A DNA stretch of 64,000 nt from a virus: the IMG/VR virus record IMGVR_UViG_3300010885_040738, positions 29,185 through 93,184 of that record. One strand, given 5' to 3'. Under the pieces are notes generated by a model that saw nothing but the letters and a program-made list of their open reading frames with translations, made no database searches and was not told where the DNA came from. Shown here in pieces: positions 8,557 to 63,314 of the stretch; position 1 is the stretch's first letter, and each line of letters starts with the position of its first letter. The position numbers and the translations under genes were made by a program.

Positions 8557-8577
8557 GCTGGCGCAGGCAGGTAAGGA

Positions 8578-8609
8578 GCCCCCGCGGGAGACCGTTGGGG
8601 GCCTTTTTT
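8578..8609 (+). terminator. Rho-independent terminator
   Basis: gcccccgcgg-gaga-ccgttgggggc followed by TTTTTT. Confidence 0.75.
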
Positions 8610-11190: not shown

Positions 11191-11199
11191 GGTATTTAA

Positions 11200-11781
11200 G
11201 TGCCTGTAGATACAAAGCCGTCTGTTGTGGCGCAATCAAGGTGGACGAGGACGCCAATATCTTTCGGAACAGGTCAGGCATATAGCGGAGTCACACTGGA
11301 GAAGCCAAAGGGGAAAGCCGTAATGATTGAGGCTAACCTTGGGCCAGACCAAGTGAAAAACAGCCGCATGCTGCGGCACGAATCAATTCATGCGCTGCTG
11401 GGTGATGCCGGCAGCGCTGCGTCAAAAGATCGTAGCGTAAGGCAGGCAGCGGCACCGATCGTAAACCAACTTTCCCAAAATGGCATGTCTGGCTATCTGG
11501 ACGATGAGATGCCTGCGTATATGGGGTCTTTTTCTGATTCGCCTGATGAATGGACCGAAGGCGTCGGGCGGGATGCCCGGAGCAGATACATTACGGCGTA
11601 CTCAGAAGCGCTTAGAAAACAGAACCCGGCGATAGCTGACAAGTATCAAAGGATGTCTCAGGATTCGTCTCCCGGGACGCTGGCGGGCGCTGTTGATATT
11701 TACCCAGGGGCGAAATACAGGGCAGTGCCGGGCGGAAACTCTGTTAAAGTCGTCCCGCACGGGCCGGGCAGGGGCAGGTAG
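11200..11781 (+). CDS. Putative zincin-like metallopeptidase
   Basis: LRHESIHALL (HExxH), with a downstream DEMPAY. Confidence 0.5.
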   Translation: MPVDTKPSVVAQSRWTRTPISFGTGQAYSGVTLEKPKGKAVMIEANLGPDQVKNSRMLRHESIHALLGDAGSAASKDRSVRQAAAPIVNQLSQNGMSGYLDDEMPAYMGSFSDSPDEWTEGVGRDARSRYITAYSEALRKQNPAIADKYQRMSQDSSPGTLAGAVDIYPGAKYRAVPGGNSVKVVPHGPGRGR

Positions 11782-11784
11782 CTA

Positions 11785-45935: not shown

Positions 45936-48900
45936 ATGGCCGATCAGCAGGGATACGACGTAGCAGGGGCGCGCAAAGCTGGTCTGTCTGACGATGACAT
46001 TCTTGGGTACCTGAATCAAGATAAGTCGTACGACGTTGACGGAGCCAGAAAGTCTGGCCTTTCCAATGACGACATGATCGGGTACTTGGCCAGTCGGCCA
46101 GCACCTGCAGCGAAGGTTGCCATGGCTGGTGCCTCGCCCGCTACGCCTGCTACCAAGCCAGTGCCCATCACAGGGCCAGTCCCGCCGGGGCTGATCGGTC
46201 CGGTAGCTACACCCGAGCAGGCTTTTGAGGCTCAAAAGAATTACGTGCCGGGCATCCCGAAGATGTCGGCATTGCCCAACGATCTGGATGAGTTGCCGCG
46301 AAGCTTAGCGACAATTCGCGCTCGCGCAGAAGGCCCCGTAGATCGACGTGTGCCGCCGGGGCCAACGGGCCCGCCGACTACACCAGAGCAGGTCGTTGCG
46401 ACCCAAAAGCAACTGTCGCCGTCAATTCCTAAAATGTCGGCATTGCCGACGTCCACGATGGATGACGTTGATGAATTTCAGCGGAGGATGAACGAGCCGA
46501 CCGGCAACCGCGTACTTGACGCAATTAGGACCGGCGACTACCGCAAGCTTGTCCCGCCAGCACCGCCGGCAAAACCAGCGACGATTACTCCTGAGTCAAC
46601 CGATCAGGATATCGAAAACGCGGCATCGGAATCGTTTTTTCATCACTCCGATCAAATAGGGCGCGGTGCCGCACGTGCCCTTGGTGCATTTGTAAGCCCT
46701 GAGAGTCTGGATTCGATGGCGATGATCGCCATGACTGGTCGCGGGCTTGCTGCGTTGGCGAATACACCAAAACTGGCGAGGGCGCTTCGGAATGCGCCGG
46801 AAGTCCTGAAAGCCCTTGACGTAGCGGCAGGAGCCGCAGTCCCTGCCGCTGTTGCCGGGTACGGCGGCGCGCAGTTGCTCACGCAGCCTGCACCATCGAA
46901 CCTTGAAGAAGCAACGGAAACAGCGATAAATGCTTTGATCCTCGGCGCAGGCACCATAGGCGCGATCGAAGCTGGCAAGAGTGTCCTGTCCAGGTACGCA
47001 GCGGAAACCAGCGGCAATGTAAGGATGCCCGGCGGTGCGGAGGTCCCGGCTAAGTCTGTCGGCGGTATCCCGGAAGTTGACCCACGCCAAGCGGCCGCGA
47101 ATGCTGCGGCACTCGAATCGCAGGGGCAGAACCTTGCGGCGATGTACTGGAATGGGCGCAACCTCAACGCACCAACTGAATTCTCGACTACCGCTGGAAG
47201 GATGTTCCTTCAGCCCGCACAGATTATAAAAAAGGCCGGCGGCAAGGTTTATCGCTATGAATCGGTACTTGATGCGGACGGGAATCTGGTCGTCGGTGGA
47301 ACGCCTGAGACGGTAAGGCAGTGGCTGGAGCACCGGAAAGCCAAAGTCAATACCTATGCTGCTGTCCCGGGGGCTGGCGGAGCGCCGCTCATCGCTGATG
47401 TCGGGACTGTCCAAACTGGAGCGTCGAACCTCAAGGCTGCGCCTGGAACCTTTCAAACGGCTGACACTGCGCTTGAATCTGACGCACCTACGCCCCCCGT
47501 AACGCAGCAGCCCCTTACCCCCGTTCAGCAAGCCGCCGGCAACCTGATGCAGGATACTTTGGGGTTCAATCCCATGGCCCCGGGCACCGAGTCTGCCGCG
47601 CCGCAGCTCATTCCTGACATCAAGGCATTTCAGAAAGCCCGTGCCGCGTGGTTGAAGCAGACGAGCGCTGCACGAGATGAATGGGAACTGGAGTCGGACA
47701 AAAGGGCAGTTGCTTTCATGGAGGCCAACCCGGGCGTTACGTGGGAAGACGCCAAGGCCGCGACCGCAGACCATGCTCCAGCGCCACAGCCCGGGCAGGA
47801 GCCGCGCCCCGAGGATTTCAAGACTCTCGCGCCTCCGCCGAAAGTAGAGCCGGTCAAAGAAGTAAAGCCGGACAAGACGAAGATCGTCACGGGCCGGACG
47901 AATAATCCGCCGACAGCAGCCACCGCAACGACGCCAGAAAGCCCGGAGACAATCGCTGCCCAGGTTACGCAGCTTGGCGAAGGCACCCGCCGCGTGGTCA
48001 TGTTCCCAAGGGGGCAAGGCCAGCCAGCGCAGTTTCCCGATAACGTCGGCATCACGAGCGATGGCCTCGGCAATACCTACGCTTACAACAAAGACCTCAT
48101 CACCCCGGCAGCCGTCCAGACGGCCGCACGCAACAACACGCTCCCGGAAATCCTTGGCCACGCGCAGATGGGCATGGGTGCGCCGGACAAGTCCATGCTG
48201 CAAGGCGATGTCGTTGTCGTTGTGGTTCGTGACGCGAACGGCGTGGAGGTCCAGTCCACCGCCACGGATGAAGCGCATTTGGAGCAGACCACGGCTGCGT
48301 CTCAGGCACTTATGCCGGAGGGTGGATCGGTTGGTATTGAGACTCCGGAGCAGGCGGTTGGGGGGCGGACTGAGGCGCCCGCTGCGCTTCAGGCTCCCGG
48401 TCGGGTTGGCGGCGGGGCTGAGGCAGGAGGCGCGCCAGTCCAGCCGCCGGAGCAAGAAGTAGCCAGCGAATATGACGGCGTGCCACTTAGTGTGCTGAGC
48501 GCATTTCCTGGTATGATCAGCCCCGGTCTGGACCTCATCCCGCTAAGTAACTTTAGCCAGACCGAACAGGCTGCACTTCGTAGTGCTGGATTAGTAGAAA
48601 CCGGAACATCCAAGAGCGGAGAATATGAGGGCGTAGACTCGGGAAAACTATGGCCGTTGCGTAGCGCCGCATCCGATGCCGGTGCAGGCAAGACCAGCAC
48701 CCACATGCCAGCCCCACCAACGCAGTTCCTGCCGCCGCGTCAGGTAGGAGGGGAAACGCCCACCGGTGACGATGCCCTGATTGGGGGGCGGACTGATATC
48801 CAGGCTCCTGCGCCATTTAAGTTCCCGCTACTGGCCCCATTTAGCCAAACATTCAAAAATCCGATCGTGTCCGTCGGCAGTATCCGTGATATTTACCCAG

Positions 48901-51900
48901 AGAGCACATTTAGTCAGTCTGACTATGTAGCATCGGCAACGCCAACTCTGGATGATGACGACTTGGAAACCGGGTGGCTTTCAATCCCAGCCATTAACGG
49001 AGGCGTTCTCATTGATCCGCAAAGTGGCAAAGCACTTTCGTTCATCGGAGATGGGACCCCGGAAGCGACAGGGCGAGCCAAGTCGGAGGCGCAGACATGG
49101 GCGATAGAAAATCGCATCAAGCAGCCGATTAAATCGGCAACTGCCAGCATTCAGGCCCCCGGCAAGGTTGGGGGTGTGCCGGATGCGGTAGTTGCCAGAG
49201 ATGCGAAGCGGCTGGCAGATGCAACGCAGGCGATTGAGCAGGCAGCGGCCAGCGGTCAAAAGATTACCGGCCAGCAGATCCAGCGCCAATTCCAGTTGGG
49301 CTATGGCGCTGCGGAATCATTGCTCAAAAGCTTTGGGCTGGACTACCTTGGGAACCCGATAGCTGAGCAGCAGCCCCCCGCGCAAGAACTGACTCCCGCA
49401 GGTGCAAAGATTCTCGACACAATCCAGTCGCCCGAACCTGACGGGCTGACGGCGCGTATTGCGGAGTGGACATCGCGAGACGGCAGCAAGAAAGGTTTCT
49501 CGGTTGCGTTTCAGGACCCCGAGAGCGGCGAGTTTCTGCCCGATATTCGCACAGCAGAGACGCTGGAACAGGCTCGGCAGATTGCGCGTAAGGCGCTTGG
49601 CATACCGGAGCCCGATATCCCTGAGCACATGGAGAACTCGTGGCAGGCACTGCAAGACGCCATGCGCTCCGTTGTAGTCGGCGGCGAACGGCAGAATCAT
49701 CCAGACCCAGTTGCGATTGATGTCTTGCGCGCACTTTCAAAAACGCCCGGAGGACTCCGCGCATTCGATAGCCTTGTCGCCAGCCGAACAGAACAGCAGC
49801 CGACCTTTCTTGGCGCTGGCGTTGGCCATGCAGTTCTGGATCTCGGGAACGGCGAAGTCCTTAAACTAGGGAAACTACAGAAACAGGAGCGTTCGCGGTA
49901 TGCCTTGCAGCCGGAAGTCTCCGGTGAGATTGGCTCCGTCGCGTATGCCATCTATCCGAAACTTGATACATCTGGAATCAGTGACGCCGATGTGGACCTT
50001 GTTGATGCGCAATTGCGCTCCGAGGGCTTGGAATGGAGTGATGCAGGGAAAGACAATCTCGGGAGGGACGCCAATGGGGATCTGAAGATTCTCGATGGCG
50101 ATGTCACTCGCAAGCCAAGCGTTCCCGCGCCGCGCCCGGTTGGCGGAGAAGCCTCAATTACTGCCGCTGGTGAATTTGCAAAGAAAGAGATGGCCGAGCA
50201 GGAGCGCTTGGAATCGCTAAACACTGGCAAGTGGGCGGGAATGAGCGGTGCGCAGATAGCAGATGCCGCGAAAGAACTCGGGATTAGCACGGATGCCTTT
50301 GCTGAGGCGACCACCAGAAGGCAGCAAATAGCTGAACGCGGTCGGCTGATCGAAGCCATTCAGGCAAAAGAAGCGGCCAAGTCCCAAACCATTCTTCCCG
50401 CACCGCGCCCGGTGGGAGGGGAAGCACCAGCACCAGAAGAAAAAGCACCGACCATCTCCAAAGATCGCGCTCAAGCAATCATAGCGCGAGTCAGCGCAGT
50501 AATGGATGAGGCCGTTAAGGCGGGAGTAATCGGCCAAGAAAACGTTTCCGATGCGATCGCAATGGTTTTGCGCGATATCCCGGATGACGCCACGGATGCG
50601 GAGATGGATCAGGTCATCGCGCTTCTTCGTAGCGAAGCGCTGGCGCCCATTGACCGCGTCGAGATGAAGCACCCGCTGACGTACTTCACGGGCTCCAGCG
50701 GCCCGGGAGTAGAGAAGCGCGCCAACGAGCGCGGCGACATCGGGCTGCTGATTACTCCGCTGATTGACTACCTTGGCAAGGTCCAGCACTACCCGGTCAT
50801 CGCGGTTGATAACGGCGCATTCTCCAAGGCAACGCCGTTTAGCGCTGATAAGTTCCTTGCCCTATTGGACAAAGTCGCGGCAGATCCTGAAGTGGCGCGG
50901 AAAGTTCAGTTCGTCGTAGCCCCAGACACGCCGATGGACGCGAAAGCGACATTGGAGAAGTTCCCGATGTGGGCTGCAGAGATTCAGAAGCGCGGCCTGC
51001 CGGTCGCTCTTGCTGGCCAGAATGGGCTGGAAGACATGATCGACCAGATTCCATGGGACGATTTCGATACCCTGTTCATGGGTGGCGATGACGAATGGAA
51101 GCTTGGGGATTTCAAGGACGAGGCTCAAAAGAAAAAGTGGCTTGACCTTTTGTGGGAAGCCGGGCAGCGCGGCAAGAAGATCCATGTCGGCCGCGTCAAC
51201 AGTTTCAAGCGCTCAGATTTCTCCAATTACCAGATGGAGGCAATCTCTGTTGACGGAACCTATTTAGCGCACGGCCCGGACAAGAACCTGCCAAAGCTGG
51301 AATCCTGGCTGAATCGCATAAATGAGCGGCCATACTCGATGGGCCCAAGGTTTCCAAACCCGCGCCCCGACGAAGCAGAGGATTCGGACTGGAGCGGCGA
51401 TCCGTTGGAGTTCGCGCCGTATCGCGGTAGCGATGCAATGTGGGAAAGCCGGAACGGAAAGTTCCTGATTTTTGATCAGGGCGATAACAGTCCGCTTGGC
51501 AAGTTCAGTCTGGTTGATACCGAAACCGACGGCACTACTTACCACAAGAGCTACGCTGCAGCTGTCAAAGCCGCACGAGAGGAGGCGCCGCCGATCGCGC
51601 CCGGGCAGGCACCGGCACCGGAGCCAGCTAACGGCGAAGTAGTCTCCTGGGACGAGGCTGAAACCCTACTGGCTACGGCTGATGCTTTTGGTGGCACGAT
51701 TACGCGCATCAGCGACACGCTTATTCACGCCGAAGCAAATGGGCGCAGGTTGGCATTTGAAAAACTTCCGGATGGGAAAGTCAGGGTAGGTCCTATCAGA
51801 GCAGAAGCACCCGCGGCCGCTCCCGCGCCAACGGCCCCAACCCCCGCACAGCCCAACTACGCACCTGAAGGCATCACGAAAGCAGAGAAATATGTAGGCC

Positions 51901-54900
51901 GGCTCGCATATCAGGCAAAGAAAGATTACGCCCGCGCCTATCTGGACCACCTGACGCTGGACGAAGCAGCGCCCGCTCGCGGCAAACTTTCAGAGGCATT
52001 AGAGAAGGAAGTAAAAAACGAGATCAACAAGCATCTGGGCAAGCGACTGGCAAAGGCTCCGGCCGCCAAGGCTCCTGCAGCCCCAGCCGTTCGCGAACTT
52101 GCCGACTTCCTCAAGCCCGGGGCCCCGCCGATTGACTGGTGGAAGACCGACGGCATCAAAGCCGACTGGGAGACGGTTCGTAAGGCTTACGCTGCACGTG
52201 CGCAGCGACCGGAAGGTGCCGGGCAGACATTCCTGGACTACACCCGGGATTGGGAAGACAATCGCGCCGAGGCTGGGTTTGACCGCCGCACTGCGGAAGC
52301 CGCAACTCAGGTTGAAGCGCCCACAACTCAGGTTGCAGCACTCACCGATCTCGACAGGTCTCTGCTGGAGTATCTGGGCAAAACCAAAACGTCGGAAGAT
52401 CTGCTGTATTTTGAGGGAGCAGGCGAAGGCGAGCAGGGGCTGAAGGACATGAACAAGGCCCTCGCTTCACTTGCAAATCGTGGACTTGTTGCCCGCGAGT
52501 ACAGCCAGACCGGCGGTGATACCAAGTTCTGGCGCACGCCTGAAGGCACCAAGGCGCTGCGCGAGAAGAAGCCAGTCACCCCGCAGATCCAGACCGGCGT
52601 GGCCGGGGCGACTCCGCTGGGGGTGAAGCCAGAGCAGATGGAAGCCACGCAGGCAGATATCCTGCTCCGAACGGCGACAAGGAAAATTGACGAGCTGATC
52701 GAGCAGGCTGAAACAGCCCTGCGTAACCAAGGCGAGAACAATGCGCGAGCGGTTCTCGACCAACTATCTGCATTCCTGCCTGCAGCACGCGAGCGCGTAG
52801 CGAAGCTTGCCTCATCTGCAGATGGCGGCTATGTGGACCGGCTGGAGTCGGCTATTGCTCGGGCTGAGGCTGTCATCGGGCGGTACGCCAAGAAACCCGC
52901 CGCTCGCGCCGCGCAGCCTTCAGCGGAACGGTTTGACGAACTCTCGAAGGAACTTGCCGAAATTGAGAGGTCGCCTCAGTACCGGCAGGACACAGAGGCT
53001 GGCAGAAACGCCCGGGAGTCAGCAAATTCTCTCAGTGTAGACGTGGCATTCCATCGCCCGGCGGCCATCGCCAGGGCGCAGGCTGAGATCGACGCGGAGA
53101 AGGCGGCTAAGAGCAGCAAGGCATGGAAGTACGAACTGAAAGCGGAGGGCAAGTGGAGCCAGCCGCTCGGGAGCCCGTTGGCGACGGAAGCGGAGGCGAA
53201 AGCCGCTGGCCAGAGCCACCTTGACCGGTGGATGATGGCTGAGGATGTCCGGACCGCGGAAGTTAACGAAAAGCCGACGCACACCTGGAACGAGGCGGAG
53301 CGCAGGCAGGAACCGATCCAGAAAGAGGCAGCAAATGCAGAAGGAAACACCACAAGCGGGGCCGCGACTAAGTCCGATGCAGGTAGCAAGACAGGCCCCA
53401 GAAGGCCTGGGGAAGCGGATACTGCGTCATTGGCAGAAGTATCGGCCGAAGACAGTTCAGAGGCTCAAGGCGAAGGGGCTCCTGAACGAGACGGTGAACG
53501 AGGCGGCAGAGGAGCACGCCCAGACGGTCAGCCAAATGCTGGGGGCGGGGTTCGGAGCGGATCAGGCGGACGAAGTGGCTCGGGAACCGTGGATCAGTCC
53601 GGAGACACGGACGGCGGACGACGAGGACCTGGAGACTTAGAGCGCCAAACCGAGGGCGGAGACTTCCGTATTTCCGACGCGGATCATATCGGAGAGGGTT
53701 CTCCGCGGCAGAAACTGAACGGCAACCTTGACGCGATCCGGATCGTAAAAGCCATTGAGAAAGACCCTCGTCCTGCAACTCCAGAGGAACAGGAGAAGTT
53801 GGCGAAGTATGTCGGGTGGGGTTCGCTGGCAAACGTTTTCGACTGGCGGAAGTCTGAGTTTGAGGGTGCTCGCGAAGAACTGAAGAAATTGCTGACGCCA
53901 GACGAGTACCGGGCTGCCGAGAAGTCGACATATAACGCTCATTACACGTCCCCGCTTGTGATTAGCTCTATGTGGGACGCCATGAAGCGACTGGGCGTAA
54001 AACCGGGGTTCAGCGTGATTGAGCCATCCATGGGCGTTGGCAACTTCTTCGGCTTGCAGCCCGACGGCCTCATGCCATCGCGACGGACCGGCGTGGAGCT
54101 CGACAAGATCACCGGCGCGATCGCGAAATTGCTGTACCCTGACTCAAATGTCCAGGTGACCGGATTCGAGCGCATTCAGTTGCCGCACAACTTCTTTGAC
54201 GTAGCCATCGGGAATGTCCCATTCGGCAACGTCGGAGTGGTGGACCCTTCTTACAGAAAGACTCCGGCCGCTACCAGCGCTATTCACAACTACTTCTTTG
54301 TTAAGTCCCTTGACTTGACGCGGCCCGGCGGCATCGTTGCCTTCATCACGTCTCGTTACACCATGGACAGTCTTGGCAAGGAAGTCAGGGACATGATCGC
54401 AGACAGGGCCAACCTGATCGGCATGTTCCGGCTGCCGAACACTGCGTTCAAGGGGAACGCCGGCACGTCGGTAGTCACGGATGTCATCTTCCTTCAGAAG
54501 CGAGCGCCCGGCGAAGCGCGGACTGGTCCGTCCTTTATTGAGACGAAAAAGGTTGCCACTGCTGACGGCACTGAGACTGATCTCAACGAGTACTACGCCG
54601 CACGCCCGGAAATGATGCTTGGGGAACTGTCAACGCAGGGCACTCAGTACGCGGCAGATAGCCAAACGCTTATCGGGAAACTGACTCCTGAGCTTCTCCA
54701 AAACGCAGTCAACCAGCTGCCGGAAAACATTTTCTCCGAATGGCATGCCGATACACCTTCGTTTGACGGCGAGTTTTACCAGCTTGGGGATGAGGTCAAG
54801 GACGGCGGGTATGCCATCAAGGATGGCGTCATCGTCCAGCGCGAGGGGAATATCTATCGCCCGACGGTAGTGGGCAAGACGCAGGGCGAGCGCATTCGCG

Positions 54901-57900
54901 GGATGATCCCCGTTCGTGCTGCTCTGCGTAAAGTTTTTGCTACACAACTAGAGGCTGAGAGCTCAGAGAAAGCTATTCTCGACGCACGCAAGGAGCTCAA
55001 TAAGGCTTACGACAAGTTTGTAAAGGAGCACGGCTATCTCAGCAGCGTTGCGAATTCACGCGCCCTCGGTGACGATCCAGACTACTCTCCGCTGGCCGGT
55101 GCGTTAGAGGACTGGGACCGCGACACCAAAACGGCAGCTAAAACCGACATTTTCACAAAGCGGACCATCGAACGTCCTTCTTTTCCTGATAAGGCCGACA
55201 CAGCTGCCGAGGCCATGGCAATGGTCCTGAATGAAAAAGGGCGACTCGACTGGAACCGCATGCAGGAACTCACCGGCAAGTCACTGGATGAGTTACGTGC
55301 AGAGTTAACAGGCCAGGTGTTCAAGAATCCTGACGGGCAAATCTGGGAGACCGAGGATGAGTACCTTTCAGGCAACGTCCGAAAGAAACTGCGTATAGCT
55401 GAGGCCGCGGCAGGTATTGACCCCTTCTACCAACGCAACGTTGACGCCCTGCTGGCTATCCAGCCCGCCGACCTTCTCCCAGAACAAATCAAAATCGTCC
55501 CTGGCGCTCACTGGATTCCGGCTACGACCATCCAGGAATTCCTTCGCGAAGTTCTGGGCCTTGATAGCGCGAAGGTCCACCACGCGGCGGCCGTGGCAAC
55601 GTGGTCTATCAATGTCCCCAACAGCTACGAACTTGATCGTACGCAAAACAAGAGTTTTGGGACTGAGAATTTCACAGGCGTCAAGCTGTTCGATATGTCG
55701 CTGAACGGCAAGGCCCCGCGTGTTTATCGGCCAGGCCCGGGCGATACCAGAATCTTTGACCCCAAAGCGACGGCGGTCGCCTTGGCGGCTCAGGATGCGC
55801 TCAACGATCGCTTTAGAGAGTGGATATGGCATAATCCATCACGCGCCCGAGAACTCGCGGAGATTTATAACCGGGAAATCAACAACATCCGGAACGTGGA
55901 GCATAACGGCGCGCATTTGACCCTCCCGGGCAGTAACCCGGCGATTGTGCTGCGGCCGCACCAGAAGAACGCTATCTGGCGAGCGCTGAAGACTGGCAAC
56001 ACGCTGCTCGCGCATGAAGTCGGAGCCGGAAAGGCCCAACCTCTCGATGCTAAAATCCTAACTCCGTCCGGATGGAAGTTGATGGGCGATATGACCGTCG
56101 GAGATCACGTGATTGCCGGCGACGGGTCGGTTACATCGGTTGAGGCCGTTTTTCCCCAAGGCGAGAAAGACATCTTTCGGGTTGAATTCAGCGATGGGAG
56201 TGCTACCGAGTGCTGTGACGAACACCTTTGGCTTACACAGACATATCAGGAGCGGAATCAGGCGCAACGGGCCGAGAAGGCAGAAAAAGACTGGAATTGC
56301 GGGAAGGCGGAGGTCCGGTCTCTAGCGGAAATCCGTAATACGCTGATCGCGCCACATCTGAATGCGAAGAATCACAGTATCCCTATTGTCGGTGCCGTTC
56401 ATTTCAATGCTCAGCCGGTCCCTCTGCATCCTTACCTACTCGGTACTTTGATTGGTGATGGGTGTTTCCGTGGGCACGGATCTGTAAGCATTTCGTCCGC
56501 CGATAAAGAACTTTTGGACGCGATTAGCCTTCTACTGCCAGCAGAATGCGAACTTCGACATCAGTCAGCCTACGACTACGTAATTGCTTGGAATGGACAG
56601 GCGCGGTACGCAGTCGGTGACGGAATGGTTCCGTCGCACCCGGTCGTAAACGCAGTTAAAAGCCTTGGCCTTTGGGGGAAGTACTCGTACGAAAAGCATA
56701 TCCCGGAATGCTACCTATTTAATTCGCAAGAAGTCAGGGCCAGCCTGCTGCAGGGGTTGATGGATACCGACGGGACTGTCACGCGGCGCGGCACTTCGGT
56801 TGAGTATTGCACGACTTCCCCCAAACTCGCGGCGCAGGTCACTGATCTTGTCAGATCTCTCGGCGGCATTGTCGCTCTTCGCTCTAAGCAGCCAGGTTAT
56901 ACGCACCAAGGTGTCAGGAAGATAGGACGTGTCGCATTTACGCTGACATTGAGCCTGCCTCCGTCAGTGCTTCCCTTCCGTCTTTCCAGAAAAGCAATAC
57001 TGGTCACGCCGAAGACAAAATACCACCCGGCCCGCTATATCACGAACGTGGCCCCTGTTGGCAGGAAGCAGGCGCAGTGCATTCGCGTGGCGCATCGTTC
57101 TCACCTGTATGTAACGGACGATTACATCGTCACCCACAACACATGGGAAATGGTTGGTATCGCCATGGAATCCCGTCGGCTTGGCCTGTCTAAAAAACCG
57201 ATGCTGGTTGTGCCAAACCACATGGCAGAGCAGTTCACGAATGAGTTCCTGCAGCTATACCCGGCAGCGCGCATCCTCACGATCGGGAAAGAGGACTTCG
57301 CCGCAGATAAGCGCAAGCGTGCCACTGCGCGCATCTCCGGCGGGAACTGGGATGCAGTCATCATCAGGCATAGCAGTTTTGAAAAGATCCCGGTCTCGGA
57401 TGCAACATTCAAGGCGTTCATTGACCGTCAGGTTGAAGAATTAAAGGCTGCGCTGGAAGCGCAGGAAGCTGAGACGGCCTCGGCACAAACAACCGGGAGA
57501 CGCGGACGCGGAGGGAAGAAGAAGGTCGATAAGTCCGTCAAAGAAATCCAGAAGGCGATTGAGCGGCTGGCTGTAAAACTGGAAAAGCGACTCAATCGCG
57601 ACAAGAAAGATGACGCAGTCACGTTTGAAGAGTTGGGGGTTGACCTTCTGCTAGTGGATGAAGCCCACGCCTTCAAGGCGCTCCCAATCGTCACCAGGCG
57701 CACGCGAGTTGCTGGTATCCCGAACCGCGAAAGCAACCGGGCGACCGATATGTTCATGAAGACCCAGTACGTGGGCGACCTGAATGGCGGGCGTCGTGGC
57801 GTTGTATTCGCCACCGGCACTCCGGTGACCAACACCATGGCAGAACTTTACAACATGCAGAGGTACCTGCAGTTGAAAACTCTGCGCGAGGCAGGGATCG

Positions 57901-60900
57901 AGCACTTTGATGCTTGGGCGAACGCATTCGGGATGATCCGCACTGGCGTCGAGCTTGACGTATCCGGCAAGGGATTTAGGGAGAATACGCGGTTCGCGAG
58001 ATTTGTCAACATCCCCGAATTGATGGCGATATACAAGCGCGTTGCCGACATTAAGACGGCGGCTATGCTGAACCTGCCCACGCCGGAACTTTTCACCGGC
58101 AACGTTGAGCCCATTAGCGTAAAGGAGACCCCTGAGCTAACCGCCTACGTGGACTACTTGATTGACCGGACTGACGTTATCCGTGGCGGCGGAGTGGACC
58201 CGAAAGACGACAACATGCTGAAGGTCGTCAGCGAGGGCAAAAAAGCGGCTCTTGATATGCGCCTTGTAGACCCGGAGGCGCAGGACCGGCCCGAGAGCAA
58301 GGTCAACACCGCTGTCGGGAATATTTACAAGATATGGGAGGAGACGAGCGACGATAAACTAACCCAGTTGGTTTTTTGCGACCTGTCGGTACCGTTGTCA
58401 GCCAAGTCACGCAAGGCCAAGAAGCAAAAGCCGACAGACGAAGAACAGCAGGCAGAAGATGAGCTCGACGCAGTTCCGGAAGCGGCCGGTGAGGCTGCTG
58501 GGTTCAGCGTCTATGACGACATGAAGGCGAAGCTTGTCGCAAGGGGCATTCCGGCAAAAGAAATCGCCTTTATCCACGACTACGATAGCGACGACGCCAA
58601 GCAGGACCTGTTTGATAGCGTCAAAGCGGGCCGCGTACGTGTGCTTTTCGGATCAACCGAAAAAATGGGTGTTGGTACCAACGTTCAGCGCCGCATGATT
58701 GCGCTCCACCACATGGATTCGCCGTGGCGTCCGGCTGACATTACTCAAAGGGAAGGGCGGATCAAGCGGCAGGGGAACAAGAATCCAAAAATACACATCT
58801 TCCAATACCTCACGGAGGGCTCCTTCGACGCCTTCATGTGGCAGACGCTGGAGACCAAGGCGATGTTTATCGCCCCGATTCTATCGGGCGATTCCAGCAT
58901 CCGTGAGATGGAAGACATCGGGATGGTGCTTCCCAGCGCCGCCGAGTTCAAGGCCATGGCGTCAGGTAACCCGATTATTAAAGAAAAGATCGGCACCGAT
59001 TCGGAGTTGGCACGGCTCGACGCGCAGCGGAATGCTTTCCGCCGGCAACAGGCTGGCGTGCGGGAGCAGATCGAAAAGCTTCCTCGCGATATTGCTTGGA
59101 AGCAAAGAGATATTGCGCGAAGGCAAAGCCAGTACGATTTTGTGGAGGCACATCAAGCCGAGGGATATACGATCGAAGGGGTTGCGTTCACTGGCGCTGA
59201 TGCGCGGAAGAACGCGGCAGCCGCGCTACACGCCGAATTGAGCGGCACCCTCCGTTTAGGTGGTTCGCCATCTAAAGTGGGGACATACAAGGGACTTGAT
59301 ATCGTTGCGTGGCCTGGGAGCGGCAGTTACCCGCGCCTCACCGTCAACATGCCCGGCAGTGCTTATGATTCGCAGTTCGGCGAAATAGGGATTTCTTTCC
59401 CTGTGTCTACCAACGAAGATAATCCGCTCGGCACACTTCAGAGCATTGAGGCTGGGGTTAGGATTTACATTACCTCACCGGAAAAGCAAAGTCTGGAGCT
59501 TGAGGAACTACTTCGTAAGCAGAAAGACCTTGAAGACCAAGGCGAAAAGCCGTGGCCGTACGAGAATCGCTACAACACGCTGGTAAAGAGAAAAATCGAG
59601 ATCGATGCCGAGCTTGACCAAAGTGAAGCAGAGAGAGTCGGCGGGGCCGAAGACGGCGAGGATACGGTCAAGCGCGTGGAGCGGCGCGGTGTCTCATATC
59701 AGGAGCGCAAAAAGCTTCTACTTGCACGTGAACGTGGCGAGAATGTTGAGTACCCGCCGCTACAGGCCCGGCACGAAGTTGGGAGTGCGCCGATGCCATC
59801 TGCGCCCGCGATCAGAACGACGAAGAACTCTGGGCCCATGTCGGCATATACACCCGGAGATGGCGAACTGGCTCCTCGCCTAAATGCTGACAGAACCCCC
59901 GTGCTTCCTACTTGGTACAGGCAGGAAATTGACGGGAAGAATTTTTACTCTGATGGCGTTTTCGTAATCCAAGGAGATACGCCAGAAGGCAAGATCGTCA
60001 ATAATGATGGGCTGAAATCATACGTGAAGCCGCAAGATGGGCAGGTAGAGATGGGCCCGCTCGCGTACTCGATTGACAAGCCAAGAGATGACGGGTCAGT
60101 CCTGCGACGTGTCTGGTTGAGCCCGCGGTTGGCGGTTGACTCCATCCCGTTCGACTACGTCAAAAAACGTTTCCCCGACGCAACTTTCTGGGCCACCGAT
60201 AATCCGACCAAGCCGGTGACGGTAAGGTCTGGCGATGATGTGGTTGCCGTCATCATGCCGCTGCGCGAAACTGCTCCGCCAGCAAATATCGAGCCCGCAC
60301 TGTCAGCCAAGCCCCGCACATCCTCCGTAACCCTCGGCATGGGGCCCGGGCAGGAGATGTACGAGGCGACGGCGAAGTACATCAAAGAAGAGACGCTGCC
60401 ATGGGTAAAGCGCATTCTGAGCGAAAAGGCGACCATGGGCCGCGCTCTGGTGGAGATCCTTGACCCGAGGTACAACACGCCGCGCCCGATCATGGACACG
60501 GTTTCCAAGATGGCTGGCGGCCGGTCCATGGCCGAATACCTGGTTGCGAAGAAACTGGACAACTGGAGCCAGAAGTTCAGCAAGATGAGCCGTCAAGACT
60601 CAATTAACTTTGTGGACCGCGTGAAGGCTGGCTTACCGCAGCCCGACGACGACCTGCAGGACGCCGCGGACTTCATGCGCCGGATGGACGATCAGGTCTG
60701 GAGCTCCATCCCCGAGGACCGGCGGCCGGCGTATCTCGAAAACCACTTCCGCGTCATGTGGAAGGTGATTCCGGATTCCAATAAGGCGATTGCTGCACGT
60801 GAGGCCCGGGCGCAAGAGCTTGTGGACGGCATGACCGATCCGACGCGCCAAGCATACGCGCAGGACTACCTCGCCTACATTACAGAGCAGACTCCTGATG

Positions 60901-63314
60901 AGCCGGAGATCCCGGAAGGCGTTCAGCCGGCCGTGGCCAGAAAGATCCGCCTCCGGATTGACAAGATCCTTCAGAGCAAAGCTGGGGGCACCGGCTACGT
61001 CGGGGCTTCGCGCAAAAACCTTCGAGGCACCCGAAGCTTTCTCAACCAGCACACTCTGGAGTCAATGTCCGAGGGCATGGAGCACGGAGGTGAACCGGTC
61101 TCCTACAACCCGCTGCTGATGTTTGCGGCCCACTACAACGACGCCATGAAGTACGTGACGGCGTTGCGGATGATCGAAAAGTTTAAGGCAGACGGCACAG
61201 CACGTTTCCTGAAATCCGGGAAGCCGATGTTTGATGGTTACGCCAAACTGGATGACAATGCGGCTCGGGTGGCGCTGAAGACGCCGCAAGGGTTTGTTGC
61301 GACCGGCGAATGGGTATTCCAGCGCAACGCGGCAAACCTTCTGAACAACATGCTTGGGCGCGATTACCTGCGTGAGGTCTACGAGGACGCCCCGATGTCG
61401 CGGTTTACCGGCCGGGCCGGACGTTCACTGCTCAACATCAAAAACGCCTACACTGCGATCGAGCTCGGGTGGTCACCGTATCACGCGGTATTTGAGGGAA
61501 TCGAAGCGGTCGGCTCAATGATGGGCATCGGACTGCGGGAAAGCTACAACACCGGCATCGTCCCGCTGGTGTCGTTCGCGCTGGGGATTCCGACTGATGT
61601 TGGGGTGACGAGCGCAAAGACAGCTTTCAAGAACATCGCGAAGGGCGTCGGAACATTAGCAACGTCCCCTTGGGCGTTCGTGTCCGCTGCGCAGGAAGGG
61701 GCGCAGGCTCGCCGCGGCTGGACCGAAGAGGTGATTGGCGCCGTCGACAATGTAAAGCCGAAGCTGTTTGACAAGCTTCTTCCGGAAGTCGCCGTTGATT
61801 ATCTGATGGCCCGGCGCGCTGAGCGTGCGATGAAGAAGACCGTCGCCGGGCGTCAGTTCGTCAAAAACAACCCAGCTGCAGCGCAGGCAATTCCGTACTA
61901 CTTCATCGGCGGCGGGAAACTTGGCCTGCCGGAGGAATTCGAGACACACGGGGCAGAAGAGCTTCAGCGGCACTGGAACGACATGCTGGACAAGCAGCGG
62001 ACCGGCAATCAGCGGGTGAGTTCGGGTCTCCGTGCCGGGCTCAAGGCGCTGCCGGCGTCCAGCCAGTACATGCTGAAGCCTTTGTTCCAGAACTACATTC
62101 CAAATCTGAAACTGGCGTTTTTCCTCCGCGAGTTTGGGCTTGCTCAGGTAGAGCGCGCCGGCGAGCTGGAGCGCGGCGAGATTACTTTGGATCAGATTGC
62201 CCGGCTGGTCGTCGGGTCAGTGGAAAACAGATTTGGCGAAATGAACTTTGATCGCCTGTTCTGGGATCGCACCATGAAGACCTTCCTGCAGATCCTGTTC
62301 CGCTCTGTTACCTGGAAGATCGGCGAGCTGTCGGAACTGGGGCGGGCGGTTTACGGTCAAGGGAAAGGTTTGCAACGTGATATTGGCAAGGGCCGCATCC
62401 CGCGGCTTGACCCAAGCATGGGCTGGCTTGTTGGCGTTGCCCTTGCGGCCGCGCTGGTCGGCACCGTGTTGACCATGGCGACGACAGGGCACCCGCCGAA
62501 AGATATGCAGGGGTTGCTTTACCCTGTCATTGATGACAGCACGGGCCTGACCGTCGCACTTGCGTCTTATATCAGGAACTACTTCCACATGAAGCATGAC
62601 CCGGTTGGCTATGTGAAGTCTTCGTTTCAGGGCGAGGTCGGCAAGGTCATGGACGTCATCAATAATCAGGATTTCCGGCATCAGAAGATCTGGCAGGACG
62701 ATGACCCGATGTACCAGCAGGCTATGGACGCAATGCTGCACCTGCTTCCGGAGCCAATCACTTCTGGCGGGATCAAGAAGATCCGGCAGGGCGACACCAA
62801 AGAGGGCATAGCCAGCATGCTCGCGTTCTCAAAGGCACCCGCCTACATCGACAAGACCCCGGCTGAACTGCTGGCGCAGGACATTGCCGGACAGCATCGC
62901 AGTGTTGGCGGGCGGTCCAAGGCCGCAGCAGACAAGGCGGAAGCCGCCAGCCGCATTCGCCGCGCATACAAAGCGGGCAACACAAAGGGCGCAGAGGACC
63001 TGATCGCCAAACAGGTCGCCGCCGGTGTTATTTCCAAGTCCGACGGCAACACCTACCGCAATCAGGCAGGGAGAAGCCCTCTCGACGCCATGGTGAAGCA
63101 GTTCTCCGTATCCGAAGCTCTTCGCGTCTACGACAAGGCCGAGGCTGACGAAAAGAAAACGCTGGGGCCAATTGTCAAAGCAAAGGTCTGGCGCGCCAAG
63201 AACTATCACCCAGCAGAATTCGGCGATCCCGGGAGCAACACATGGAACCTTGCGACGAAACACTTTGGGGTCAAACCGCCACCGGCCGCACGTCAGGGGC
63301 AGGTGACTCAGTAA
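45936..63314 (+). CDS. Giant 5792-aa polyvalent virion protein, DarB-like (N6-adenine MTase plus SNF2 helicase), with extra kinase-like, TGT/DpdA-like and wHTH domains and an intein
   Basis: N-terminal GYDVxGARKxGLSxDD x2; MTase NAHYTS, EPSMGVGNF, GVELD, IGNVPF; helicase HEVGAGK/T, DEAH, ATGTP, QREGRIKRQGN; large helical C-terminus. Confidence 0.9.
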   Translation: MADQQGYDVAGARKAGLSDDDILGYLNQDKSYDVDGARKSGLSNDDMIGYLASRPAPAAKVAMAGASPATPATKPVPITGPVPPGLIGPVATPEQAFEAQKNYVPGIPKMSALPNDLDELPRSLATIRARAEGPVDRRVPPGPTGPPTTPEQVVATQKQLSPSIPKMSALPTSTMDDVDEFQRRMNEPTGNRVLDAIRTGDYRKLVPPAPPAKPATITPESTDQDIENAASESFFHHSDQIGRGAARALGAFVSPESLDSMAMIAMTGRGLAALANTPKLARALRNAPEVLKALDVAAGAAVPAAVAGYGGAQLLTQPAPSNLEEATETAINALILGAGTIGAIEAGKSVLSRYAAETSGNVRMPGGAEVPAKSVGGIPEVDPRQAAANAAALESQGQNLAAMYWNGRNLNAPTEFSTTAGRMFLQPAQIIKKAGGKVYRYESVLDADGNLVVGGTPETVRQWLEHRKAKVNTYAAVPGAGGAPLIADVGTVQTGASNLKAAPGTFQTADTALESDAPTPPVTQQPLTPVQQAAGNLMQDTLGFNPMAPGTESAAPQLIPDIKAFQKARAAWLKQTSAARDEWELESDKRAVAFMEANPGVTWEDAKAATADHAPAPQPGQEPRPEDFKTLAPPPKVEPVKEVKPDKTKIVTGRTNNPPTAATATTPESPETIAAQVTQLGEGTRRVVMFPRGQGQPAQFPDNVGITSDGLGNTYAYNKDLITPAAVQTAARNNTLPEILGHAQMGMGAPDKSMLQGDVVVVVVRDANGVEVQSTATDEAHLEQTTAASQALMPEGGSVGIETPEQAVGGRTEAPAALQAPGRVGGGAEAGGAPVQPPEQEVASEYDGVPLSVLSAFPGMISPGLDLIPLSNFSQTEQAALRSAGLVETGTSKSGEYEGVDSGKLWPLRSAASDAGAGKTSTHMPAPPTQFLPPRQVGGETPTGDDALIGGRTDIQAPAPFKFPLLAPFSQTFKNPIVSVGSIRDIYPESTFSQSDYVASATPTLDDDDLETGWLSIPAINGGVLIDPQSGKALSFIGDGTPEATGRAKSEAQTWAIENRIKQPIKSATASIQAPGKVGGVPDAVVARDAKRLADATQAIEQAAASGQKITGQQIQRQFQLGYGAAESLLKSFGLDYLGNPIAEQQPPAQELTPAGAKILDTIQSPEPDGLTARIAEWTSRDGSKKGFSVAFQDPESGEFLPDIRTAETLEQARQIARKALGIPEPDIPEHMENSWQALQDAMRSVVVGGERQNHPDPVAIDVLRALSKTPGGLRAFDSLVASRTEQQPTFLGAGVGHAVLDLGNGEVLKLGKLQKQERSRYALQPEVSGEIGSVAYAIYPKLDTSGISDADVDLVDAQLRSEGLEWSDAGKDNLGRDANGDLKILDGDVTRKPSVPAPRPVGGEASITAAGEFAKKEMAEQERLESLNTGKWAGMSGAQIADAAKELGISTDAFAEATTRRQQIAERGRLIEAIQAKEAAKSQTILPAPRPVGGEAPAPEEKAPTISKDRAQAIIARVSAVMDEAVKAGVIGQENVSDAIAMVLRDIPDDATDAEMDQVIALLRSEALAPIDRVEMKHPLTYFTGSSGPGVEKRANERGDIGLLITPLIDYLGKVQHYPVIAVDNGAFSKATPFSADKFLALLDKVAADPEVARKVQFVVAPDTPMDAKATLEKFPMWAAEIQKRGLPVALAGQNGLEDMIDQIPWDDFDTLFMGGDDEWKLGDFKDEAQKKKWLDLLWEAGQRGKKIHVGRVNSFKRSDFSNYQMEAISVDGTYLAHGPDKNLPKLESWLNRINERPYSMGPRFPNPRPDEAEDSDWSGDPLEFAPYRGSDAMWESRNGKFLIFDQGDNSPLGKFSLVDTETDGTTYHKSYAAAVKAAREEAPPIAPGQAPAPEPANGEVVSWDEAETLLATADAFGGTITRISDTLIHAEANGRRLAFEKLPDGKVRVGPIRAEAPAAAPAPTAPTPAQPNYAPEGITKAEKYVGRLAYQAKKDYARAYLDHLTLDEAAPARGKLSEALEKEVKNEINKHLGKRLAKAPAAKAPAAPAVRELADFLKPGAPPIDWWKTDGIKADWETVRKAYAARAQRPEGAGQTFLDYTRDWEDNRAEAGFDRRTAEAATQVEAPTTQVAALTDLDRSLLEYLGKTKTSEDLLYFEGAGEGEQGLKDMNKALASLANRGLVAREYSQTGGDTKFWRTPEGTKALREKKPVTPQIQTGVAGATPLGVKPEQMEATQADILLRTATRKIDELIEQAETALRNQGENNARAVLDQLSAFLPAARERVAKLASSADGGYVDRLESAIARAEAVIGRYAKKPAARAAQPSAERFDELSKELAEIERSPQYRQDTEAGRNARESANSLSVDVAFHRPAAIARAQAEIDAEKAAKSSKAWKYELKAEGKWSQPLGSPLATEAEAKAAGQSHLDRWMMAEDVRTAEVNEKPTHTWNEAERRQEPIQKEAANAEGNTTSGAATKSDAGSKTGPRRPGEADTASLAEVSAEDSSEAQGEGAPERDGERGGRGARPDGQPNAGGGVRSGSGGRSGSGTVDQSGDTDGGRRGPGDLERQTEGGDFRISDADHIGEGSPRQKLNGNLDAIRIVKAIEKDPRPATPEEQEKLAKYVGWGSLANVFDWRKSEFEGAREELKKLLTPDEYRAAEKSTYNAHYTSPLVISSMWDAMKRLGVKPGFSVIEPSMGVGNFFGLQPDGLMPSRRTGVELDKITGAIAKLLYPDSNVQVTGFERIQLPHNFFDVAIGNVPFGNVGVVDPSYRKTPAATSAIHNYFFVKSLDLTRPGGIVAFITSRYTMDSLGKEVRDMIADRANLIGMFRLPNTAFKGNAGTSVVTDVIFLQKRAPGEARTGPSFIETKKVATADGTETDLNEYYAARPEMMLGELSTQGTQYAADSQTLIGKLTPELLQNAVNQLPENIFSEWHADTPSFDGEFYQLGDEVKDGGYAIKDGVIVQREGNIYRPTVVGKTQGERIRGMIPVRAALRKVFATQLEAESSEKAILDARKELNKAYDKFVKEHGYLSSVANSRALGDDPDYSPLAGALEDWDRDTKTAAKTDIFTKRTIERPSFPDKADTAAEAMAMVLNEKGRLDWNRMQELTGKSLDELRAELTGQVFKNPDGQIWETEDEYLSGNVRKKLRIAEAAAGIDPFYQRNVDALLAIQPADLLPEQIKIVPGAHWIPATTIQEFLREVLGLDSAKVHHAAAVATWSINVPNSYELDRTQNKSFGTENFTGVKLFDMSLNGKAPRVYRPGPGDTRIFDPKATAVALAAQDALNDRFREWIWHNPSRARELAEIYNREINNIRNVEHNGAHLTLPGSNPAIVLRPHQKNAIWRALKTGNTLLAHEVGAGKAQPLDAKILTPSGWKLMGDMTVGDHVIAGDGSVTSVEAVFPQGEKDIFRVEFSDGSATECCDEHLWLTQTYQERNQAQRAEKAEKDWNCGKAEVRSLAEIRNTLIAPHLNAKNHSIPIVGAVHFNAQPVPLHPYLLGTLIGDGCFRGHGSVSISSADKELLDAISLLLPAECELRHQSAYDYVIAWNGQARYAVGDGMVPSHPVVNAVKSLGLWGKYSYEKHIPECYLFNSQEVRASLLQGLMDTDGTVTRRGTSVEYCTTSPKLAAQVTDLVRSLGGIVALRSKQPGYTHQGVRKIGRVAFTLTLSLPPSVLPFRLSRKAILVTPKTKYHPARYITNVAPVGRKQAQCIRVAHRSHLYVTDDYIVTHNTWEMVGIAMESRRLGLSKKPMLVVPNHMAEQFTNEFLQLYPAARILTIGKEDFAADKRKRATARISGGNWDAVIIRHSSFEKIPVSDATFKAFIDRQVEELKAALEAQEAETASAQTTGRRGRGGKKKVDKSVKEIQKAIERLAVKLEKRLNRDKKDDAVTFEELGVDLLLVDEAHAFKALPIVTRRTRVAGIPNRESNRATDMFMKTQYVGDLNGGRRGVVFATGTPVTNTMAELYNMQRYLQLKTLREAGIEHFDAWANAFGMIRTGVELDVSGKGFRENTRFARFVNIPELMAIYKRVADIKTAAMLNLPTPELFTGNVEPISVKETPELTAYVDYLIDRTDVIRGGGVDPKDDNMLKVVSEGKKAALDMRLVDPEAQDRPESKVNTAVGNIYKIWEETSDDKLTQLVFCDLSVPLSAKSRKAKKQKPTDEEQQAEDELDAVPEAAGEAAGFSVYDDMKAKLVARGIPAKEIAFIHDYDSDDAKQDLFDSVKAGRVRVLFGSTEKMGVGTNVQRRMIALHHMDSPWRPADITQREGRIKRQGNKNPKIHIFQYLTEGSFDAFMWQTLETKAMFIAPILSGDSSIREMEDIGMVLPSAAEFKAMASGNPIIKEKIGTDSELARLDAQRNAFRRQQAGVREQIEKLPRDIAWKQRDIARRQSQYDFVEAHQAEGYTIEGVAFTGADARKNAAAALHAELSGTLRLGGSPSKVGTYKGLDIVAWPGSGSYPRLTVNMPGSAYDSQFGEIGISFPVSTNEDNPLGTLQSIEAGVRIYITSPEKQSLELEELLRKQKDLEDQGEKPWPYENRYNTLVKRKIEIDAELDQSEAERVGGAEDGEDTVKRVERRGVSYQERKKLLLARERGENVEYPPLQARHEVGSAPMPSAPAIRTTKNSGPMSAYTPGDGELAPRLNADRTPVLPTWYRQEIDGKNFYSDGVFVIQGDTPEGKIVNNDGLKSYVKPQDGQVEMGPLAYSIDKPRDDGSVLRRVWLSPRLAVDSIPFDYVKKRFPDATFWATDNPTKPVTVRSGDDVVAVIMPLRETAPPANIEPALSAKPRTSSVTLGMGPGQEMYEATAKYIKEETLPWVKRILSEKATMGRALVEILDPRYNTPRPIMDTVSKMAGGRSMAEYLVAKKLDNWSQKFSKMSRQDSINFVDRVKAGLPQPDDDLQDAADFMRRMDDQVWSSIPEDRRPAYLENHFRVMWKVIPDSNKAIAAREARAQELVDGMTDPTRQAYAQDYLAYITEQTPDEPEIPEGVQPAVARKIRLRIDKILQSKAGGTGYVGASRKNLRGTRSFLNQHTLESMSEGMEHGGEPVSYNPLLMFAAHYNDAMKYVTALRMIEKFKADGTARFLKSGKPMFDGYAKLDDNAARVALKTPQGFVATGEWVFQRNAANLLNNMLGRDYLREVYEDAPMSRFTGRAGRSLLNIKNAYTAIELGWSPYHAVFEGIEAVGSMMGIGLRESYNTGIVPLVSFALGIPTDVGVTSAKTAFKNIAKGVGTLATSPWAFVSAAQEGAQARRGWTEEVIGAVDNVKPKLFDKLLPEVAVDYLMARRAERAMKKTVAGRQFVKNNPAAAQAIPYYFIGGGKLGLPEEFETHGAEELQRHWNDMLDKQRTGNQRVSSGLRAGLKALPASSQYMLKPLFQNYIPNLKLAFFLREFGLAQVERAGELERGEITLDQIARLVVGSVENRFGEMNFDRLFWDRTMKTFLQILFRSVTWKIGELSELGRAVYGQGKGLQRDIGKGRIPRLDPSMGWLVGVALAAALVGTVLTMATTGHPPKDMQGLLYPVIDDSTGLTVALASYIRNYFHMKHDPVGYVKSSFQGEVGKVMDVINNQDFRHQKIWQDDDPMYQQAMDAMLHLLPEPITSGGIKKIRQGDTKEGIASMLAFSKAPAYIDKTPAELLAQDIAGQHRSVGGRSKAAADKAEAASRIRRAYKAGNTKGAEDLIAKQVAAGVISKSDGNTYRNQAGRSPLDAMVKQFSVSEALRVYDKAEADEKKTLGPIVKAKVWRAKNYHPAEFGDPGSNTWNLATKHFGVKPPPAARQGQVTQ
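53335..53640 (+). CDS. Nested +1-frame gene (TnpV-like small protein usually found next to DarB-like MTase-helicases)
   Basis: AGAGG SD before the ATG at 53335; GKRILRHWQKYRPKTVQRLKAKGLL..AAEE...GFGADQADEVAREPWI; the host frame here is a low-complexity G/R/S linker. Confidence 0.7.
   Translation: MQKETPQAGPRLSPMQVARQAPEGLGKRILRHWQKYRPKTVQRLKAKGLLNETVNEAAEEHAQTVSQMLGAGFGADQADEVAREPWISPETRTADDEDLET
56034..57140 (+). mobile_element. 369-aa class-3 intein with a LAGLIDADG endonuclease, inserted in the helicase Walker A motif (GAGK^T)
   Basis: Starts with Ala (AQPLDAKILTP) and ends THN/T; WCT signature (DEHLW, AQCIRV, YVTDD); LLGTLIGDG and LLQGLMDTDG. Confidence 0.92.

Follow-up and report, generated by a model that had tools for sequence, protein, structure and literature searches.

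A 5,792-amino-acid (aa) protein of an uncultivated virus was found to carry, within an architecture like that of the virion-associated DarB proteins, a small domain that reads from its sequence as a catalytically intact module of the DpdA family. The virus is IMG/VR record IMGVR_UViG_3300010885_040738 (93,184 bases; CheckV completeness 96%), and the window analyzed here is its last 64 kb (64,000 nucleotides, positions 29,185 to 93,184 of the record); all coordinates below are those of the window. The ORF list and translation showed that the giant protein is encoded by a single uninterrupted open reading frame (ORF) on the plus strand (45936..63314), in which the DpdA-like minimal TIM-barrel domain spans aa 1577-1795 (50664..51320, plus strand), as indicated by its phrog_15826, AlphaFold2, hhalign and fold matches. 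Membership of the domain in the DpdA family is highly probable. Base exchange on DNA with a host-supplied 7-deazaguanine would be its most likely function, to which we assign a probability of roughly 55%.

An earlier reading of the window made from the letters alone (the sequence-only reading) had described a segment of ~220 aa in the 5792-aa ORF with a series of transglycosylase-like motifs. The stretch 50664-51320 is in frame with the giant ORF and translates into 219 residues with zero stops, and all the quoted motifs were recovered in it, namely YFTG, IAVDNGAFS, FVVAPD, DAKATL, VALAGQNG, LFMGG-DEWKL, IHVGRVNS and SVDGTYLAHGPDKNL, the last of which holds D1773. As a sequence pattern, this set of motifs is far beyond chance. 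For comparison with DpdA, a 30-sequence alignment of relatives of gp87 from Arthrobacter phage Sonali was used as the reference. Gp87 is a 296-aa 'queuine tRNA-ribosyltransferase' encoded at 10943-11833 of the Sonali locus (L002), directly upstream of QueC, QueD, QueE and FolE and with a ParB-like gene adjoining. It matched the DpdA of Escherichia phage CAjan by tblastn (E 4e-9), and deletion of CAjan dpdA abolishes dPreQ0 in the phage DNA (PMC6884629). The domain family aligned to this CAjan/Sonali-type DpdA by hhalign with 96.9% probability (E 1.9e-10, 148 columns), and a broader family profile of 124 sequences reached 97.4% (E 1.2e-11).

The hhalign pairing joined DNGAF to DSGAF, APD..D to ALDVIGD, Q119 (domain numbering) to a conserved His, GG to GG, HxGRVNS to HGLGITS, and SVDG to SxDSS, and the register was recovered likewise against the single sequences of Sonali gp87 and CAjan DpdA. 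In the DpdA alignment, the counterparts of D1625, D1664 and D1773 are the invariant D38, D74 and D175, and the three aspartates of the domain are 97-100% conserved in its family. In the Salmonella DpdA, Asp95 serves as the general acid/base, Phe99 as the stacking residue, Asp130 and His181 as readers of the Watson-Crick edge, and Asp256 as the nucleophile; the D95A and D256A substitutions abolish guanine exchange (PMC10164549). Since the Asp residues of DNGAF and SVDG align to catalytic positions of this type, their proposed role as the catalytic pair gained support. By the same alignment, DNGAF (starting at aa 1625; 50808..50822) would contribute D1625 as the general acid/base and F1629 as the base-stacking Phe. 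VAPD (aa 1661; 50916..50927), which aligns to the invariant L-D of DpdA ALDVIGD, would contribute D1664 for base recognition as the equivalent of Salmonella Asp130, and AGQNG (aa 1693; 51012..51026), with invariant Q and G, would contribute Q1695 as the second base-recognition residue. D1773 of SVDGT (aa 1771; 51246..51260), aligned to the invariant Asp of DpdA SxDSS and equivalent to Salmonella Asp256, is the predicted nucleophile. Two other motifs are FMGGD (aa 1714; 51075..51089), in which the invariant G1716-G1717 lie in the loop after strand 6 and align to the GG of DpdA and bacterial tRNA-guanine transglycosylase (TGT), and HVGRVNS (aa 1750; 51183..51203), which follows strand 7, has H1750, R1753 and N1755 invariant in the family and aligns to DpdA HGLGITS. 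All of these motifs are encoded on the plus strand. Significant profile homology and three invariant predicted active-site aspartates thus argue for placing the domain in the broad DpdA family.

Structure prediction pointed the same way. AlphaFold2, run with a 45-sequence alignment of the family, modeled the domain as a compact TIM barrel of eight strand-helix units (predicted local distance difference test, pLDDT, 96.7; predicted template modeling score, pTM, 0.92), with each conserved motif at or just past the C-terminal end of a strand. Foldseek against the PDB returned TGT, triosephosphate isomerase, PdxJ and Cap10 mixed at template modeling (TM) scores of 0.5-0.6. In a VIA-align scan of the PDB, the Z scores were 14.5 for Cap10, 13.7 for ArcTGT, 13.2 for bacterial TGT, 12.5 for DpdA (7ui4) and 11.6 for QTRT2, and chains of the TGT family occupied ranks 1, 4, 5, 17 and 36. 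The PDB comparison of the model therefore indicates a TIM barrel with the TGT family among the best matches, and nothing beyond that. The predicted viral structures of BFVD were more discriminating: the first match was a clear family member (TM 0.77), and named phage DpdAs or queuine tRNA-ribosyltransferases made up much of the top 30. These included proteins of Arthrobacter phages Mufasa8 and Sonali, Mycobacterium phage Bella96 and Microbacterium phage Megan, as well as a Sulfolobales virus, a Cellulophaga phiST protein and a Vibrio nt-1 protein, with glycoside hydrolases and phosphodiesterases appearing only lower in the ranking. The domain is accordingly predicted to adopt a TGT-type TIM-barrel fold, as the sequence-only reading had supposed.

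Sequence searches with the domain, both as a single sequence and as profiles, returned only noise from Pfam (even at E<=10), NCBIfam and PDB. It matched phrog_15826, a family of unknown function, with an E value of 3.4e-42 over 199 of 212 profile positions. A word-indexed search yielded 349 domain homologs of 120-384 aa, none of which had a Pfam domain, and HMMER, run exhaustively over 1.84 billion representatives of clusters at 50% identity, returned 1,738 of them at E<=1e-3 and 1,010 at E<=1e-10. In the 45-sequence family alignment, D49, N50, P87, D88, D92, Q119, G121, W131, F138, G141 and K146 were invariant (domain numbering), as were H174, G176-R-V-N-S180, R183, D197-G-T199 and W215. Active-site conservation was computed over 37 fused copies, 80 stand-alone copies and seven copies linked to que genes; identical residues at D49, N50, D88, Q119, G121, G141, K146, H174, R177, N179, R183 and D197 were 94-100% conserved. 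The D, N and G of DNGAF were conserved in 100% of the fused copies. The position of D1664 was conserved in 100% of all three groups, and that of D1773 in 100% of the fused and que-linked copies and 97% of the stand-alone ones. The domain contains zero Cys and therefore no zinc site, and its C-terminal end lies 22 residues past the predicted nucleophile D1773. Assignment to the Pfam TGT family of tRNA-guanine transglycosylases (PF01702) was rejected on the absence of any Pfam match at E<=10 and of Cys. On its sequence, the domain is best described as belonging to an uncatalogued compact DpdA subfamily of ~205 aa that is equal to phrog_15826 and lacks both a zinc site and a C-terminal extension. 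Many Solirubrobacterales chromosomes (metagenome-assembled genomes, MAGs; L142-L164) share a conserved gene of 229-251 aa that matched domain residues 47-199 only; outside phages, it may represent a separate chromosomal branch of this family.

Compared with CAjan DpdA and Sonali gp87, the domain shares the TIM barrel, ~130-150 homologous columns and the elements DxGAF, (L/P)D..GD, GG, HxG and a late Asp in the same order, and some members of its family likewise occur in queC/E/D operons. In contrast, it is ~90 residues shorter, lacks the C-terminal extension, is only ~15% identical, has its own invariant EWK and GRVNS..R signature, has no Pfam or NCBIfam model, and is fused in a giant protein of a phage whose genome is without que genes. 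The Salmonella Montevideo DpdA (7ui4) aligned to the model over 200 residues (Z 12.5; root-mean-square deviation 3.4 Å), and sequence comparison suggests counterparts of its three active-site Asp residues and stacking Phe in the domain; domain searches gave no significant sequence match to this protein. TGT, ArcTGT (PF01702) and Cap10 aligned over 200-204 residues (Z 13.2-14.5) with the same local register of Q..G and GG, whereas the domain is without their zinc-binding subdomain, insertions and C-terminal RNA-binding domains.

The relatives of the domain had been said to be normally stand-alone genes, and this was the case for 69 of the 80 viral loci fetched, which carried small genes of ~200 aa. 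A tblastn search of 50,697 phage genomes located relatives encoded as stand-alone genes in mycobacteriophages of cluster P and in phages of Arthrobacter, Rhodococcus, Synechococcus, Roseobacter and Erythrobacter, several of them annotated by SEA-PHAGES as 'DpdA-like tRNA-guanine transglycosylase'. Sonali encodes a small DpdA-like protein, gp81 (7956-8573), 2.4 kb from gp87. Because the two types stand side by side in one phage, the small type and the DpdA1-like type represent paralogous subfamilies, and their coexistence suggests different target sites or bases.

Linkage to que operons, scored within 10 kb on the 80 viral loci, gave the strongest functional evidence for working DpdAs within this subfamily. 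Que genes occurred within this distance at 8/80 loci, and at seven of them (L017, L018, L024, L035, L037, L061 and L066) the family gene directly abutted que genes. QueC was adjacent in L017, L018 and L024, with QueD following in L024; QueD abutted the family gene in L037; and the order queC-queE-queD-family gene was found in L035, L061 and L066. The phages of L017, L018, L024 and L066 are 95-100% complete and contained neither a DpdA1-type nor a Pfam-TGT match, so the small protein is the only candidate transglycosylase in these four. In the complete 40.6-kb phage of L017, N6/N4 DNA methylase genes lie on both sides of the queC and DpdA-like gene pair; this small DNA-modification island (8253-12265) pairs the chemistries that are also paired in the giant protein.

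The carrier itself was examined for the DarB-like methylase-helicase architecture that the sequence-only reading had assigned to it. An N6-adenine DNA methyltransferase core of Eco57I type was detected at aa 2751-2831 (54186..54428, plus strand; Pfam PF07669, E 9.5e-07, above the cut-off), and a helicase C-terminal domain of an SNF2/DEAH-type motor at aa 4209-4280 (58560..58775, plus strand; Pfam Helicase_C, E 0.0011, below the cut-off). Over 792 aa, the methylase-helicase part shared 39-40% identity with proteins that carry the labels 'DarB-like antirestriction', 'PLxRFG protein' or 'Snf2 family helicase' and come from Vibrio, Klebsiella, Erwinia, Ralstonia and Agrobacterium phages, including VvAW1, SopranoGao, PEp14, Gervaise and Atu_ph08. 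With an N6-adenine methylase and a superfamily-2 helicase predicted in one polypeptide that is homologous to annotated DarB-like proteins, the assignment holds at the sequence level. A 369-aa LAGLIDADG intein (aa 3367-3735; 56034..57140, plus strand; Pfam LAGLIDADG_3 and Hom_end inside) splits the helicase Walker A motif, with the boundary residues GAGK | A...THN | T. Homologous giant proteins are without this intein, because their alignments are contiguous across aa 3366 to 3736 of the giant ORF. A P-x(2-3)-VGG linker motif occurs seven times in the N-terminal third (47046-50438, aa 371-1501), and its last copy, PAPRPVGGE, lies ~80 aa upstream of the DpdA-like domain.

The giant, polyvalent ORF is the last large gene of the virion module, downstream of the terminase, portal and tail-fibre genes. 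In P1 DarB, Bcep22 gp75, JC1 gp69, PEp14 and VvAW1, too, an N6-adenine methylase and helicase core is set in a giant multi-domain architecture, and in Bcep22-like phages the giant gene is likewise placed at the end of the morphogenesis module. In one such phage, JC1, the 4,515-aa homolog gp69 was identified in purified virions by 51 unique peptides (PMC9144972). From its gene position and the JC1 proteomics, delivery of the giant protein with the virion is a reasonable inference by analogy. Unlike the window protein, none of these DarB-like proteins of cultured phages matched the DpdA-like domain by tblastn.

To investigate the distribution of the fusion, as the sequence-only reading had recommended, the 150 best cluster representatives were surveyed. 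Long proteins of 619-6,014 aa accounted for 38 of them, with the domain positioned anywhere from residue ~50 to ~4,550. Only five of these 38 have the methylase-helicase core in common with the giant ORF, the others sharing the domain only; other partners included Strawberry-notch helicases, a ddrB-ParB domain, the polyvalent-protein pyrophosphatase InPase and DUF7178, a set typical of polyvalent proteins. Among the 80 viral loci, eight of the nearest relatives were ORFs of >1,000 aa. Bacterial genomes searched with the single domain sequence gave nothing, and an alignment-based repeat gave matches, the three closest being 1,432-3,870-aa ORFs in Fuerstiella, Myxococcaceae and Parvibaculum MAGs. 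Among cultured phages, no fusion was found: none of the 27 tblastn matches pointed to a giant fused gene, and the three that were inspected are stand-alone. One of these three, the 213-aa product of gene 101 of Erythrobacter phage ZS04 (L165, 11935-12576), is labeled 'DarB-like antirestriction protein', which looks like a misleading annotation transfer from giant proteins containing the domain. In a maximum-likelihood tree of 99 domains, a branch with a Shimodaira-Hasegawa-like approximate likelihood ratio (SH-aLRT) support of 94 set all 37 fused copies apart, together with nine short proteins; the main difference of the fused clade is an insertion of 8-12 residues after EWKLG.

The fusion is thus widespread in metagenomes and not unique. 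The sequence-only reading knew of no description of it, and in the literature no paper was found that combines DpdA with polyvalent proteins or describes the fusion; stand-alone relatives are already labeled DpdA-like by SEA-PHAGES. The term 'DpdA-like' was met only in genome announcements and earlier DpdA work, and in recent papers defining bDpdA and DpdA1-4 no fusion to other enzyme modules was found. TGT, queuine, deazaguanine and TIM barrels are all absent from the 2017 survey of polyvalent proteins by Iyer et al. (PMC5512222). In the parts of the Hutinet 2019 supplements that were available, none of ReqiPine5, Fishburne, Sonali, GreaseLightnin and Weirdo19 was named, nor was Ksquared.

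Several observations weigh against base exchange with a 7-deazaguanine by the window protein, and some against the family assignment beneath it. In the PDB scan, aldolases, epimerases and pyruvate kinase were interleaved with the TGT family at Z 13-14, and because TGT-family chains tie with other TIM barrels, the fold alone cannot assign the family. Direct hhalign comparison of the domain with E. coli Tgt (0.15%) and with a 34-sequence proteobacterial TGT profile (0.4%) was not significant. As a control, a bona fide DpdA1 reached only 9.7% against the same 34-sequence profile, and the DpdA1 profile found no PDB TGT; since this control shows the test to be weak, the null result was not counted against homology. 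A Gln, as in TGT, occupies the position of the DpdA His; Q1695 paired locally with the Q of the TGT G(I/V)VQGG motif, below significance. The absence of queC/D/E or folE genes noted earlier for the window extends to the whole 93,184-base record, in which no QueC, QueD/PTPS, FolE, radical-SAM or Pfam-TGT match was detected, so the window phage shows no linkage to the preQ0 pathway (FolE, QueD, QueE, QueC). QueC was also absent from all ten viral records of the fused clade, four of them 99-100% complete, and no que gene was found within 10 kb of any fused copy. All seven que-linked copies fell across the SH-aLRT 94 branch from the fused copies, and because of this split, the operon evidence is borrowed from a sister clade. 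QueC was not found in GreaseLightnin, a cluster P mycobacteriophage with a stand-alone member, whose host, M. smegmatis, is without the preQ0 pathway (PMC6884629). Because carriers infect this preQ0-less host, part of the family must use another base or act otherwise. The actinomycete Longispora, which carries a family gene and has no TGT, speaks against a universal deazaguanine role. The terminase of the window phage has cultured relatives of only 25% identity, too distant to assign a host.

Phages with DpdA only have also been accepted as DpdA members in published work (PMC6884629), and a host supply of the base is possible. The Parvibaculum, Myxococcaceae and Fuerstiella MAGs with fused copies each contained a full-length QueC and a canonical TGT, with the caveat that MAG binning of phage contigs is unreliable. 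As a separate caution for host inference, near-identical contigs of ~39 kb with a 291-aa family member (L091-L094) were binned to MAGs of three different phyla, from Dehalococcoidia, Gammaproteobacteria and Stappiaceae, and are probably one phage or plasmid mis-binned repeatedly.

The main rival to base exchange with a 7-deazaguanine retains the same fold and chemistry with another outcome: the domain would act as a DNA glycosylase without base replacement, or would exchange guanine for a base other than a 7-deazaguanine, possibly on host DNA or on host dPreQ0/dADG marks. Roughly 90% of the family loci have no que genes nearby, and the separate fused clade, the members in phages of preQ0-less M. 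smegmatis, the Longispora gene without a TGT and the Gln in place of the DpdA His at the base-reading position would all fit such an activity. However, the fused copies and those of the queC-queE-queD operons have every pocket residue in common, so there is no sequence signature of a different base specificity, and the bins holding fused copies have QueC and TGT. The transglycosylases of this superfamily keep a covalent intermediate and are not known as simple hydrolases. Overall, we consider this rival a minority possibility of perhaps one chance in a handful.

A target other than DNA is improbable. In this case the substrate would be host tRNA, with queuosine or preQ1 at position 34, or a protein-linked 7-deazaguanine, for example in the reversal of the Cap10-type deazaguanylation that arms type IV CBASS (cyclic-oligonucleotide-based antiphage signaling system). 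Cap10, a TGT-family enzyme that conjugates deazaguanine to protein (10.1101/2025.04.06.647259), gave the best PDB fold match (Z 14.5), and anti-defence effectors are common in polyvalent proteins (PMC5512222). But its lead over ArcTGT and TGT was only ~1 Z unit, which is a tie; profile homology points to the DNA-acting DpdA; the zinc subdomain and C-terminal RNA-binding parts of the tRNA enzymes are missing from the domain; and the fusion partners are DNA enzymes (methylase, SNF2 and Strawberry-notch helicases, ParB). A catalytically dead relic, whose only role in the giant protein would be DNA binding or structural spacing, would agree with the absence of substrate genes from the phage, but was rejected as very unlikely because 37 fused copies of only 36-68% overall identity show 100% conservation at every predicted catalytic and pocket residue, which indicates selection on catalysis.

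Under base exchange with a host-supplied 7-deazaguanine, the domain would flip guanine out of DNA, with D1625 acting as the general acid/base, and a free base, most likely a 7-deazaguanine such as preQ0, would replace it. As the phage is without the preQ0 pathway, the base would come from the host. The bacterial DpdA, a stand-alone protein of host defence with 413 aa, depends on the ATPase DpdB (PMC10164549), a separate ParB-like protein. By analogy with this pair, opening or bending of the DNA may fall to the SNF2-type motor that is part of the same polypeptide; the dependence on an ATPase partner would find its parallel in the in-cis helicase here and in the ParB and Strawberry-notch modules of the sister proteins. 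P1 DarB and the DarB-like protein carried in JC1 virions suggest, by analogy, that the protein may enter the cell with the genome, where adenine methylation and guanine exchange would mark the genome before restriction systems act. The complete picture, in which a virion-delivered, motor-coupled base-exchange enzyme rewrites the incoming genome or host DNA in the first minutes by drawing on the host preQ0 pool, with the in-cis SNF2 ATPase as the counterpart of DpdB and the same polypeptide methylating adenines, is a tentative proposal built on these analogies, and we regard it as possible rather than likely.

DpdA has so far been treated as a stand-alone signature gene of phages with 7-deazaguanine DNA, usually beside the preQ0 pathway. 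The present analysis adds a minimal DpdA subfamily that is invisible to Pfam and NCBIfam and that occurs in operons with queC-queE-queD as well as in giant polyvalent proteins, where it is a shuffled module. Its orphan copies in preQ0-less hosts raise the question of what else the active site inserts or removes, and a barrel of 205 aa would be the smallest known scaffold of this enzyme class, with possible use in DNA-labeling tools. If the fused copies are active, they would represent a new DNA-modifying chemistry among the effector domains delivered with phage DNA, a host-metabolite-dependent route to hypermodified DNA, and a natural in-cis version of the dependence of DpdA on the DpdB ATPase. 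If the complete picture is true, 7-deazaguanine marking would be available as a pre-replicative, protein-borne counter-defence to phages without deazaguanine biosynthesis genes.

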